DNA from: a virus
Lineage: Duplodnaviria; Heunggongvirae; Uroviricota; Caudoviricetes
DNA: 29,365 nt
Virus record (IMG/VR): IMGVR_UViG_2693429774_000014
Strand: one strand, 5' to 3'
Shown here: positions 4,403 through 20,059 of the stretch, piece by piece
How positions within the stretch are numbered: the first letter of the stretch is position 1
Layout of the letters: every line of letters starts with the position of its first letter
Notes under the pieces: model-generated
Told to the model about the DNA's origin: nothing
Database searches by the model: none
What the model saw: the letters and a program-made list of their open reading frames with translations, nothing else
Program-made: the position numbers and the translations under genes

Positions 4403-4455
4403 GGGCGGCAGAGCAGTCACGGAGTAAAACTGATACCGCCAAACGTCACCAGAAA
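4403..4455 (-). ncRNA. dicF: DicF small regulatory RNA (53 nt processed form; intrinsic-terminator U-tract extends to about 4398)
   Basis: Minus-strand sequence UUUCUGGUGACGUUUGGCGGUAUCAGUUUUACUCCGUGACUGCUCUGCCGCCC followed by UUUUU matches DicF as I recall it. Lies between ydfC and dicB as in the K-12 dicB operon. Confidence 0.7.
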
Positions 4456-16333: not shown

Positions 16334-18184
16334 ATGTCGATTAAACATTATGATGTTGTCAGGGCGGCGTCGCCGTCAGACCTTGCGGAAAAGCTGACAC
16401 ACAAACTGAAAGAGGGCTGGCAGCCATACGGCGGACCGGTTGCCATTACGCCGTACACACTGATGCAGGCGGTGGCTATTGAAGGAGAGCCACAGGTCGG
16501 CCCTTCATCTGAGCCGGATTGGTACTACGTCATCGTACTGGCCGGGCAGTCCAATGCCATGGCTTACGGTGAAGGGCTTCCGCTGCCGGATTCATACGAT
16601 GCTCCGGATCCGCGCATTAAACAGCTGGCGCGCCGCAGTACAGTGACGCCGGGCGGGGCTGCCTGCAGATATAACGATATTATTCCGGCTGACCACTGTC
16701 TGCATGATGTGCAGGATATGAGTACGCTGAATCATCCGAGGGCTGACCTGAGCAAAGGGCAGTACGGCTGTGTCGGCCAGGGTTTACATATTGCCAAAAA
16801 ACTGCTCCCGTATATCCCGAATAACGCGGGGATCCTGCTGGTACCATGCTGTCGTGGTGGTTCGGCATTTACCCAGGGCGCGGAGGGGACATTCAGCGAG
16901 TCCACGGGGGCCAGTCAGGATTCGGCACGCTGGGGGGTGGGCAAGCCGTTATATCAGGATCTGATTTCCCGCACAAAAGCGGCATTGCAGAAAAATCCCA
17001 AAAACGTTCTGCTGGCCGTCTGCTGGATGCAGGGTGAGTTTGACATGAGCGCCGCCACCCACGCACAGCAACCTGCGCTGTTTACAGCCATGCTGACACA
17101 GTTTCGTGCTGACCTCTCCGTGTTTAACGCGCAGTGCCATGGTGGCAGCGCTGCAGATGTGCCGTGGATTTGTGGTGACACGACGTATTACTGGAAAAAT
17201 ACATACGCTACCCAATACGACACCGTGTACGGCGGGTATAAAAACAGGGAGAGTGAGGGCGTTTATTTTGTGCCCTTCATGACAGACGGTAACGGCGTCA
17301 ATACCGCCACTAACGCGCCGGCAGAAGATCCGGATATTCCGGCATCAGGATATTACGGTGCGGCATCGAGAACGAATGGAAACCAGGTATCATCAAACCG
17401 CCCGACACATTTCAGTTCATGGGCGCGCAGGAGCATTATTCCGGATCGTCTGGCAACCGCTATTCTGAACGCAGCCGGGCGCACCTCAGCCTTCATCAGT
17501 GGTAAGGCACCGGAAATCAAACCCTCGCCCGGCGGCAACACGCCATCGGGTCCGTCTGCAGATACGTCCGTTCGCACAATCTCCCTGCTGCCGGCAGCCG
17601 GAGAGGCTGCTGCGCAGGGCTGGAGCATTAAGGATGGCGGAATTCAGTTGTCAGATGGTGTATTTAAGATCACCAAGCAGAGCAATAAAACCTGGTCCCT
17701 GACGCATCCGGTGGATGACGCAATTACCCTGCTGACACAGGGCGGCAGACTGACCTGTAAGTTCCGCCTGTCAGGCGCACTGACCAACAATCAGTTCGGG
17801 CTGGGGATTTATCTGTATACGGATGCTCCCGTTCCTGATGGTGTGGCGATGACGGGTACCGGTAATCCGTTCCTGATGTCGTACTTCACTCAGACCACTG
17901 ACGGCAGAGTGAATCTGATGCATCACAGGAAAGCCGGAAACACGAAGCTGGGGGAGTTCGGCGGTTACGGTAACGACTGGCAGACGCTGGAGCTGGTGTT
18001 CACCGCCGGCAGTGCCACGGTTACTCCGAAACTGAATGGAGTGGCTGGCCCGGCATTCCAGGTTATAAAAGACGGTCTGACACTGGGACTGAATGCGCTG
18101 ACGCTGACGGATGTTACAAAAAATGCAGCGTATGGCGTTGAGATAGAAAGTCTGGTGCTGGAGATAAATGCACCGGCAGCATAA
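16334..18184 (+). CDS. nanS: Prophage NanS-p-like sialate O-acetylesterase (616 aa; SGNH/SASA esterase core with extra N- and C-terminal domains)
   Basis: Block VIVLAGQSNAMAYGEG (GQSN-type esterase motif). Size and position (between the Q/tRNA region and the holin) match the NanS-p genes of Stx-type lambdoid phages. GGGAGA ribosome-binding site. Confidence 0.8.
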   Translation: MSIKHYDVVRAASPSDLAEKLTHKLKEGWQPYGGPVAITPYTLMQAVAIEGEPQVGPSSEPDWYYVIVLAGQSNAMAYGEGLPLPDSYDAPDPRIKQLARRSTVTPGGAACRYNDIIPADHCLHDVQDMSTLNHPRADLSKGQYGCVGQGLHIAKKLLPYIPNNAGILLVPCCRGGSAFTQGAEGTFSESTGASQDSARWGVGKPLYQDLISRTKAALQKNPKNVLLAVCWMQGEFDMSAATHAQQPALFTAMLTQFRADLSVFNAQCHGGSAADVPWICGDTTYYWKNTYATQYDTVYGGYKNRESEGVYFVPFMTDGNGVNTATNAPAEDPDIPASGYYGAASRTNGNQVSSNRPTHFSSWARRSIIPDRLATAILNAAGRTSAFISGKAPEIKPSPGGNTPSGPSADTSVRTISLLPAAGEAAAQGWSIKDGGIQLSDGVFKITKQSNKTWSLTHPVDDAITLLTQGGRLTCKFRLSGALTNNQFGLGIYLYTDAPVPDGVAMTGTGNPFLMSYFTQTTDGRVNLMHHRKAGNTKLGEFGGYGNDWQTLELVFTAGSATVTPKLNGVAGPAFQVIKDGLTLGLNALTLTDVTKNAAYGVEIESLVLEINAPAA

Positions 18185-18185
18185 T

Positions 18186-18470
18186 AAAAAAAGAGCCAGC
18201 GACTGACCTGAAAGAAGACGCTGGCTAAAAGGCCTTATATGTTTGTAGAGACTTATTTTTCACAGACAGCAATGATGCCTGTCAATATATTATCAATATG
18301 CGGATTGTTTCAGTTACAGATGCTTTATTAAGGAAAAAAACAGCCAGCACTGACTTTCGGTGGAGAGGTGCTGGCTCAGAAGGATAGTTGGATTTCACAT
18401 GATACTTATGCCTGGCGGTATATTTTCTGACAGACAGTGACGGGTGTTGTCAAGATATTGTGTCATTTAT
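18186..18470. repeat. Imperfect tandem direct repeat (two units of about 115-135 bp, each with a GCCAGC...GCTGGC inverted repeat) in the nanS-to-holin intergenic region
   Basis: Unit 1 (about 18186-18300) and unit 2 (about 18334-18470) align by eye: AAAAAAAGAGCCAGCGACTGAC...GCTGGCT...CAGACAGCAATGATGCCTGTCAATATATT versus AAAAAAACAGCCAGCACTGACT...GCTGGCT...CAGACAGTGACGGGTGTTGTCAAGATATT. Confidence 0.6.
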
Positions 18471-18551
18471 AACCTGAATCAGGGGAGGCCGGAATGTTAT
18501 CTGGCATTTTTAGCAGAGCCTGAATGCCATAATCACGGCTCCCGGAGTTGG

Positions 18552-18590
18552 CCGTCAGTGGGTGACACTGGCGGTTTTTTTGTTTTTCTT
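18552..18590 (+). terminator. Strong rho-independent terminator about 40 bp upstream of the holin gene
   Basis: 9-bp stem CCGTCAGTG/CACTGGCGG (one G-U pair), loop GGTGA, then TTTTTTTTGTTTTT. Confidence 0.65.
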
Positions 18591-18631
18591 TACTTTCATT
18601 TTCTGTCGGCGGTGACGGAGACATACATCAG

Positions 18632-18838
18632 ATGGAAAAAATCACAACGGGTGTGTCATACACCACGTCAGCGGTGGGGACGGGATACTGGTTACTGCAG
18701 CTGCTGGACAAAGTCTCTCCGTCCCAGTGGGTGGCAATCGGTGTGCTGGGGAGTCTGCTGTTTGGCCTGCTGACGTATCTGACTAACCTTTATTTCAAGA
18801 TTAAAGAAGATAAGCGTAAGGTGGCGCGGGGAGAGTAG
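18632..18838 (+). CDS. S: Phage-21-type holin (class II holin/pinholin family, 68 aa)
   Basis: [68 protein letters not shown] closely resembles S21 as I recall it; two TM segments and a basic C-terminus. Confidence 0.85.
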
Positions 18839-19093
18839 TCGATGAATAAACAATACGAACTGGTTGTAAAATGAATATTTCTAACTGAAAAAACGTTCCA
18901 TGAGGTAAGAAAAGGTCACAGGCAATCAATAACAGGACGTGATGAAAGACCCTTGCATTTGTGCGCTTTCTCTTTAGATAGCAGCAGATACTGAAAATCT
19001 GAGTTGTCGGGGAGTCAGGGATACAGCTGTGCAAGAGTTGGTCATTGTGATTCCATTGAAATCCTGTATGCCATGAAGGGCAGGATTTTATGG

Positions 19094-19408
19094 CTACCTG
19101 AGCTTTGGTGATAGTAAGTTGAAAATTCGCATTTTTTGCTGACATGCGTAACGAGAATCCCATAAGCAGGGAGGACTTAATTCTTCATTAACCCATGCGT
19201 TGATATTATGTTTCAGCCGTTGAAGCATCAGCGGTGTTAATGTTGTGGTAATAATATCCAGCGTTTTATGTGAGATCTTACCGTAAGGGTCTGCAAGAAT
19301 GCTGCTTGTTGCTTCGTTATTATCTGCCATCAGAAGAAGTAACTCTGATTTAACGTTTTCTGTCATTAGTTGTAAAAATCTTCTGCGCAAACTTTCTTTA
19401 CTGTTCAT
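19094..19408 (-). CDS. YdfR-like hypothetical protein (104 aa) encoded antisense within an AT-rich insert between holin and endolysin
   Basis: ORF on the opposite strand in an AT-rich segment (about 18840-19500). K-12 Qin has a roughly 103-aa ydfR between essQ and rrrQ. Ribosome-binding site is weak. Confidence 0.45.
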   Translation of the reverse strand: MNSKESLRRRFLQLMTENVKSELLLLMADNNEATSSILADPYGKISHKTLDIITTTLTPLMLQRLKHNINAWVNEELSPPCLWDSRYACQQKMRIFNLLSPKLR

Positions 19409-19525
19409 TTATATGGCTTCATTTGTTGTAATCTGCTGCGTCTCAAGGGATATGTTTATGAGAGCGACCATGAGTGTTGGATTATATACCTAACATATCA
19501 AGGGATTAGAAATCGATAAATCCCC

Positions 19526-20059
19526 ATGAACGAAAAAATAAAATACGGCCTGTCGGCTGCCGTTCTGGCGCTGATTGGTGCAGGTGCTTCTGCGCCTGAA
19601 ATCCTCGACCAGTTTCTGGATGAAAAGGAAGGTAACCACACCACGGCATACCGTGATGGTGCGGGGATCTGGACCATCTGCCGTGGTGCCATTCTGGTGG
19701 ATGGTAAGCCTGTTATTCCTGGCATGAAGCTGTCAAAGGAAAAATGCGACCGGGTTAATGCCATCGAACGTGACAAGGCGCTGGCATGGGTGGAGAAAAA
19801 CATCCGGGTGCCGCTGACCGAACCCCAGAAAGCGGGGATCGCGTCATTCTGTCCGTACAACATTGGCCCCGGTAAGTGCTTCCCGTCGACGTTTTATAAA
19901 CGAATTAATGCAGGCGATCGAAAAGGTGCCTGTGAGGCGATTCGCTGGTGGATTAAGGACGGTGGCAGAGACTGCCGTATCCGTTCAAATAATTGCTACG
20001 GTCAGGTCTCACGGCGTGACCAGGAGAGCGCGCTGGCGTGCTGGGACATCGACAGATAG
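19526..20059 (+). CDS. R: Endolysin, T4-lysozyme-family (GH24) with N-terminal signal-anchor (SAR-type, as in phage 21 R)
   Basis: N-terminal hydrophobic YGLSAAVLALIGAGASAP, then catalytic-triad spacing E-x8-D-x5-T (LDEKEGNHTTAYRDGAGIWT). Pairs with a pinholin-type holin. Confidence 0.85.
   Translation: MNEKIKYGLSAAVLALIGAGASAPEILDQFLDEKEGNHTTAYRDGAGIWTICRGAILVDGKPVIPGMKLSKEKCDRVNAIERDKALAWVEKNIRVPLTEPQKAGIASFCPYNIGPGKCFPSTFYKRINAGDRKGACEAIRWWIKDGGRDCRIRSNNCYGQVSRRDQESALACWDIDR

Follow-up and report, generated by a model that had tools for sequence, protein, structure and literature searches.

The 447-bp spacer between the sialate esterase and holin genes (18185-18631; esterase stop at 18184, holin ATG at 18632) very probably consists of two tandem minus-strand genes for small RNAs (sRNAs) of the PasA/PasC family and of a separate plus-strand terminator placed before the lysis genes, i.e. 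of three stop signals serving two opposed sets of transcripts. The window, by which is meant the whole stretch of 29,365 nucleotides analysed, is, as read from its sequence, the late region of a lambdoid prophage, in which this segment separates esterase from holin. PasA, the pathogenicity-associated sRNA A, was described in prophage PP2 of EPEC E2348/69 (Pearl Mizrahi et al. 2021, PMC8550237), and its homologues EcOnc51 and EcOnc52 in EHEC were noted by the Pas authors. What looks like a leader of the lysis genes would be a published virulence-associated sRNA locus on the opposite strand, which amounts to a correction. Everything of substance in the locus is already published or annotated. 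The segment had been regarded in an earlier note as unexplained by known features; this view has to be abandoned, since the esterase-PasA-holin arrangement is published and the phage 434 record annotates all three terminators. The one thing apparently new here, and a modest one, is that the PasA locus commonly occurs as a tandem pair, a form that is polymorphic with loci of a single unit.

Gene context of the spacer

The features of the spacer and of its surroundings are the following (arrows give the direction of minus-strand features).

14104-14793: Q antiterminator gene, upstream of the spacer (Pfam PF06323)
15004-15250, plus: three tRNA genes downstream of Q (Rfam)
16024-16196, plus: STnc100 RNA, just 5' of the esterase gene (Rfam, 100.8 bits)
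16334-18184, plus: NanS-p-type sialate O-acetylesterase, 616 amino acids (Pfam DUF1737, SASA and DUF6645; RefSeq annotation of near-identical prophages)
18186..18277, minus: unit 1, probable diverged PasA/PasC-like paralogue of EcOnc52 type, 5' end uncertain, ~18248-18277
18226->18186, minus: Rho-independent terminator of unit 1, abutting the esterase stop codon (scan hit; -16.0 kcal/mol)
18285->18255, minus: promoter-like site of unit 1, TTGACA, 19-nt spacer, AAAAAT (hexamer scan 10/12; predicted start ~18248)
18313->18284, minus: alternative site for unit 1, CTGAAA-18-TATATT (tool scan; start ~18277)
18418->18334, minus: PasA sRNA gene, 85 nt, Sakai Sp12 variant = EcOnc51 (coordinate transfer, probe, covariance model)
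18374->18334, minus: Rho-independent terminator of PasA, conserved 9-bp stem then GU7 (-16.3 kcal/mol)
18453->18422, minus: candidate promoter-like block before PasA, TTGACA (18453->18448), 20-nt spacer, GAAAAT (18427->18422)
18550-18590, plus: intrinsic terminator in late-operon orientation (scan, folding, conservation, phage 434 annotation)
18617-18620, plus: holin Shine-Dalgarno sequence GGAG (read from the sequence)
18632-18838, plus: class II (phage-21-type) holin S (Pfam PF04971, E 1.9e-32)
19526-20059: lysozyme (Pfam)
Rz protein (Pfam-confirmed)

The same gene order is annotated in the near-identical prophages of E. coli MEI003 and E2348/69. The FORC 064 record matches the spacer at 100% but is not colinear with the window upstream of it, and MEI003 was used as the context reference instead. 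A near-full spacer is present in 671 of 5426 complete E. coli genomes, and as Rfam 15 holds no PasA/PasC model, automated annotation leaves it blank in hundreds of them. Upstream, STnc100 is related to PasD (Zhu, Shabalina and Storz 2026 preprint), and the position of the window STnc100 is that of PasD2 in E2348/69; with PasA downstream, the esterase gene therefore has sRNA genes on both flanks. Elsewhere in the window, Rfam identifies a DicF RNA at 4403-4454 (minus) and a sok antitoxin RNA beside a hok-type locus at 11534-11708 (plus), both ordinary for such prophages.

To note, a 690-bp insert (18839-19525) lies between the holin and endolysin genes, which abut in E2348/69 PP2 and in phage 434. 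It carries a minus-strand ORF (19094-19408, 90-104 amino acids), which occurs as hypothetical protein WP_000138558.1 in related prophages and has no Pfam match, and an intrinsic-terminator-like site at 19216-19235 (plus). Two ORFs that overlap the spacer were weighed, one of 53 amino acids on the minus strand (18463-18624) and a GTG-started one of 109 amino acids on the plus strand (18444-18773). The former was rejected: it has no ribosome-binding site, and the length of an internal G-run differs among related loci by non-multiples of three. This G-run, equivalent to 18483-18489 (plus) and located between the region upstream of PasA and the plus-strand terminator, varies in loci L008-L122 (GGGGAGG, GGGGTTGG, up to G9AG) and has a slippage-prone look.

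Two hairpins and a weak direct repeat

The spacer contains a hairpin formed by AGCCAGCGACT/AGACGCTGGCT at 18194-18226 and another formed by GCCAGCAC...GTGCTGGC at 18342-18374, bearing out the GCCAGC...GCTGGC inverted repeat that the earlier note had described in each unit. The isolated stems fold far better than their shuffled counterparts (z of -5.0 and -4.6, respectively, with none of 200 shuffles equal). Of the two tandem repeat units of 115-135 bp that had been proposed, the repetition stands and the size does not: the start-to-start period is 148 bp, with unit 1 at 18186-18333 and unit 2 at 18334-18481. Local alignment of the units yields ~62% identity with several indels and a score of 64, against 24.4 ± 4.7 for dinucleotide shuffles, none of 1000 reaching it (z ~8). 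Without the hairpins, the similarity of the unit bodies is marginal, 16 of 1000 shuffles being as good, and Tandem Repeats Finder at a minimum score of 30 returned no row for these two copies of ~62% identity. At the level of alignment, the direct repeat is real but weak, and the homology of its units is supported by PasC intermediates and by the covariance model described below.

The strand on which the hairpins act as stop signals can be read from their flanks. An A7 run lies directly 5' of each hairpin on the plus strand and nothing T-rich lies 3'; the minus strand thus carries U7 after each hairpin, which makes each an intrinsic terminator pointing leftwards. Neither of these minus-strand terminators is bidirectional, and the plus-strand terminator before the holin is likewise unidirectional. 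The proposal that the duplicated hairpins serve as plus-strand RNA-processing or regulatory sites runs against these U-tracts, and the hairpins coincide base for base with published 3' ends of minus-strand sRNAs. A regulatory family, for which an Rfam search had been suggested, did not appear either: searched with the gathering cutoff and again with E allowed up to 10, the segment 18100-18700 gave no cis-regulatory match and no credible family, only chance matches of snoRNA type.

Unit 2 is a PasA gene

In E2348/69, PasA is located on the minus strand at NC_011601 743499->743415 as a major form of 85 nt, with a minor form of 236 nt ending at 743264 (PMC8550237 Table S6). The fetched E2348/69 spacer aligns to the window with 97% identity, and its coordinates transfer to 18418->18334 for PasA and to 18183, the end of the unit 1 U-tract, for the end of the minor form. 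The northern probe, GCCAGCACTGACTTTCGGTGGAGAG (PMC8550237), matches the window plus strand at 18343-18367 over 25 of 25 nt. EcOnc51 of Sakai prophage Sp12, mapped here with the Sakai genome and the coordinates of PMC4104026, covers 18314-18390. Unit 2 lies between the sialate esterase and holin genes, antisense to both, and all the sequence-level criteria tested place it in the PasA family.

The window copy is identical to that of E2348/69 at 74 of 85 nt: the 3' 45 nt are identical, and the 11 differences all fall in the first 40 nt. Such a distribution fits the published PasA variants, which share a common 3' end and diverge in their 5' part (Zhu, Shabalina and Storz 2026 preprint); the window PasA is probably the variant called PasA-2 in that preprint. 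The seed GCCAGCACCU, taken from Fig. S5 of PMC8550237, is found at 18373->18364, inside the 5' arm of the terminator.

Expression, Hfq dependence and RNA ends are taken from the literature on near-identical copies (97-99%) in E2348/69 and Sakai. The E2348/69 PasA was detected by northern blot and has a log2 fold change of -2.8 in an hfq mutant (PMC8550237), and Hfq CRAC in Sakai covers EcOnc51 (PMC4104026).

The PP2 and PP5 esterase genes are among the PasA partners (PMC8550237 Table S7), and the sequence CTGGTGCTGGAG at 18152-18163 (plus), which falls in the final 33 nt of the esterase ORF, matches the PasA RIL-seq target motif CUG[A/G]UGCUGGA. Duplex folding of the esterase 3' end with PasA or unit 1 gave pairing not better than shuffles (38 of 500), and reliance is placed here on the published motif only.

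Family relationships and unit polymorphism

The covariance model R1 was built from PasA and PasC variants only, unit 1 and the window PasA being left out. Its top two matches in the 29-kb window are unit 2 (108 bits, E 7e-20) and unit 1 (24.5 bits, E 0.003 by a rough calibration), both full length and on the minus strand. The third-best match, at 26700-26775 (plus; 18.8 bits, E 0.04), covers the last part of an ORF and, after it, the terminator GGCGCCAGAAATGGCGCC-T6; it resembles the 5' part of PasA (ACCGCAGGCATCAGTATCAGCTGAA) at ~22 of 27 nt, probably by chance.

The two units are bridged by PasC of E2348/69 prophage PP5. This single unit, directly after the esterase stop codon, has a terminator stem like that of unit 1 and a body like that of PasA. 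In a set of 14 distinct units, pairing in the 9-bp terminator stem reaches 96.8%, and three of the nine pairs show compensatory double changes; the U-G wobbles of the PasC type become A-C mismatches on the plus strand.

For the survey of related loci, 120 viral or prophage contigs sharing the esterase 3' end were fetched and joined to reference loci, giving 128 loci, of which 108 have a measurable spacer. Two-unit spacers (442-448 bp) account for 74 of these 108 loci and one-unit spacers (290-302 bp) for the other 34, the latter being either of the PasC type or of a PasA type with GCCAGTAC...GTACTGGC, a double compensatory change. In the two-unit class, variation is concentrated in the 5' half of PasA (18386-18425), outside which the spacer is almost invariant. 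To note, locus L002 (Sakai Sp4) carries an IS629 insertion at the equivalent of 18307/18308; PasA, the plus-strand terminator and the holin gene are gone, and unit 1 is left beside the esterase gene. In a published survey, each prophage has Pas genes as single copies, and pasA genes lie at least 22.5 kb apart. Since they are treated there as single copies, the tandem paralogy has apparently not been noted before; together with the unit polymorphism, it makes a small addition to how Pas sRNA genes diversify.

Unit 1 and the minus-strand promoters

The promoters of both units are inferred by us from sequence motifs. A block TTGACA...CTGTCTGT..(A/G)AAAAT with a 19-20-nt spacer is common to both units and PasC. 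It would put starts near the reported 5' end of PasA (18418) and near the 5' edge of EcOnc52 (~18250). Its 19-20-nt spacing is long for sigma-70, and promoter and hexamer scans found no sigma-70 promoter with standard spacing before PasA. The mature 5' end of PasA is reported to be made by cleavage (Zhu, Shabalina and Storz 2026 preprint).

By the mapped coordinates, unit 2 corresponds to EcOnc51 and unit 1 to EcOnc52: the EcOnc52 (Sp4) Hfq-CRAC cluster maps to 18174-18251, with its 5' edge at ~18251 (PMC4104026 coordinates). The reads assigned to EcOnc52 may derive from identical copies elsewhere or from PasA read-through. Unit 1 is also the 3' part of the 236-nt PasA read-through RNA (18418->18183), and its terminator backs up that of PasA. 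The most fitting description of unit 1 is that of a diverged paralogue, already encountered both under the name EcOnc52 and as the distal part of the 236-nt PasA. The chances that it has a promoter of its own as well are about even.

Two other accounts of unit 1 differ in how much function they grant it. It could be a decaying duplicate rather than a gene of its own, its sole remaining role being that of a back-up PasA terminator shielding the esterase gene from antisense transcription. It is indeed at the unit 1 terminator that the published 236-nt minor form of PasA stops, the body of unit 1 gives only a weak alignment with PasA and PasC and lacks a 15-nt stretch found in PasA, and the authors of both Pas papers count unit 1 within PasA. 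Yet unit 1 is nearly invariant (minor-allele fraction 0.001-0.08 among 37 distinct two-unit spacers) and retains the TTGACA...AAAAAT block common to PasA and PasC, from which a start would fit the 5' edge of the EcOnc52 cluster, while its terminator region has a RIL-seq partner of its own, escD, whose chimeras map to the equivalent of 18186-18213. We regard the decaying duplicate as possible, though somewhat doubtful. According to the other account, which seems unlikely, the PasA locus would be a two-gene tandem in which unit 1, transcribed separately, adds a third member to the PasA/PasC group, with its own seed GCCAGCGUCU and its own targets, e.g. escD, both RNAs being also cis-acting. As both sRNAs are perfectly complementary to any plus-strand transcript across the spacer, they would act in cis too; if so, pairing with an esterase 3' extension or with the late transcript would affect the stability of the esterase mRNA or read-through to the holin gene, and would couple sRNA expression to the timing of lysis.

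The plus-strand terminator before the holin

The earlier note had placed a strong plus-strand intrinsic terminator just before the holin gene, and this holds. Its stem (18550-18576) has 11 pairs, six of them G-C, a 5-nt loop and then T7GT5 to ~18590, with an energy of -18 to -19.8 kcal/mol (z -3.3), and it ends 42-55 nt before the holin ATG. In the loci compared here, the stem is nearly invariant (39 of 39 distinct holin-proximal sequences, representing ~107 loci), and changes are found only in the loop, in the closing pair (G-U here, G-C in most) and in the length of the U-tract. As it hardly varies, the stem displays no covariation.

In uninduced EPEC, RIL-seq found plus-strand spacer RNA on Hfq, at the equivalent of 18413-18431, where it behaves like a target (PMC8550237). 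Non-induced, non-Q transcription thus reaches the spacer. By analogy with terminators of other lambdoid phages, we infer that this terminator probably insulates the lysis genes from non-Q transcription, and since the Q gene lies upstream, Q-dependent read-through would be expected. A literature search returned nothing specific on a terminator between nanS-p and S.

Two readings would instead assign a plus-strand RNA function to parts of the spacer. The terminator could be the 3' end of a discrete plus-strand sRNA of ~110 nt (~18480-18590), or that of an sRNA made from the esterase 3' UTR, rather than mainly an insulator. The fold of 18480-18592 is indeed compact, with two domains and the terminator at its end (-42 kcal/mol, z -3.1), no variation among loci is seen in 18446-18545, and the plus-strand spacer RNA on Hfq would suit an sRNA. 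That RNA, however, is target-like, as it takes the first position in chimeras and only in 0-3% the second; for Sp12, the list of Tree et al. contains no Hfq-bound RNA from the plus strand; no acceptable plus-strand promoter is found upstream; and the variable-length G-run lies in the 5' arm of the predicted long helix, while the partner of that arm never changes. A discrete plus-strand sRNA is therefore decidedly unlikely. Still more improbable is a plus-strand role of the two hairpins, in which they would serve the processing, stability or regulation of the late or esterase mRNA and would form with the terminator one cis-regulatory leader for the lysis genes. Inverted repeats fold on either strand, those of the plus strand being stable (-15.6 and -20.8 kcal/mol), they would be part of any late or esterase transcript that crosses the spacer, and 18480-18592 is unusually structured on that strand. 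Against such a leader, the U-tracts are on the minus strand only, as are the published 3' ends and Hfq clusters, the wobbles of the PasC type would be mismatches in a plus-strand stem, Rfam offers no cis-regulatory match, and one-unit loci work with half the supposed leader. HnrS (EcOnc10-12), a 66-nt prophage sRNA, was also considered as a plus-strand RNA and was discarded, the Sp12 HnrS region having no match anywhere in the window.

Proposed organization of the locus

In the organization proposed here, with two minus-strand sRNA genes and an opposed terminator, PasA (18418->18334) and unit 1 (ending at 18186) would each possess their own hairpin-plus-U7 terminator, unit 1 being the older or the faster-diverged copy. 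Most PasA transcripts would end at the first terminator, yielding the 85-nt form, and a minority would run to the second, yielding the 236-nt form; the second terminator would also keep antisense transcription out of the esterase gene. The sRNAs would act in trans on host and virulence mRNAs via Hfq, with the PasA seed overlapping the 5' arm of the terminator and the 5' half forming the variable, presumably target-diversifying part. An extension of the esterase mRNA to 18590, if any, would be antisense to both sRNA genes. On the opposite strand, the terminator before the holin would stop RNA polymerase unmodified by Q, including read-through from the esterase moron in the lysogen, and holin, endolysin and spanin would therefore be expressed only from Q-antiterminated late transcription. 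By analogy, it could plausibly protect lysogens in which the esterase is expressed from making holin by accident.

Comparison with known systems

The closest relative is PasA of PP2, with which the window shares the locus, the strand relative to the late operon, the terminator, the seed and the 3' 45 nt, and from which it differs by the 11 substitutions in the first 40 nt. PasC of PP5 belongs to the same family and occupies the same site after the esterase stop codon, and its stem GCCAGCG...CGCTGGC resembles that of unit 1; PasC loci, however, have a single unit in a spacer of ~292 bp, as compared to the two units of the window. The esterase-PasA-holin-lysozyme synteny and the common ancestry of PasA and PasC have been described (Zhu, Shabalina and Storz 2026 preprint). 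In Sakai, the source of EcOnc51 and EcOnc52 (Tree et al. 2014, PMC4104026), the Sp12 spacer is ~99% identical to that of the window; both RNAs are listed there as candidate sRNAs only and are uncharacterised.

The record of phage 434 (OL657226.1) annotates minus-strand terminators after the esterase, equivalent to 18183-18205 and 18334-18352, and a plus-strand terminator before the class II holin, equivalent to 18551-18587; it annotates the terminators and no sRNA genes. The anti-sRNAs AgvB and AsxR (RF02702, RF02703) are likewise short Hfq-binding prophage sRNAs from the moron area of the late region; they too run antisense to the late operon and combine a variable 5' part with a conserved 3' part. 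They differ in sequence and in their site, between the stx/moron position and the esterase, and neither family matches in the whole window at the gathering score or in 18100-18700 at E up to 10.

Q-modified RNA polymerase reads through the lambda tR' and moron terminators. The plus-strand terminator of the window is likewise intrinsic, points in the late direction and lies between Q and the lysis genes. It differs from tR' in not being promoter-proximal: it is located ~3.8 kb downstream of Q, beyond the tRNA genes and the esterase gene, where override by Q would be expected by analogy.
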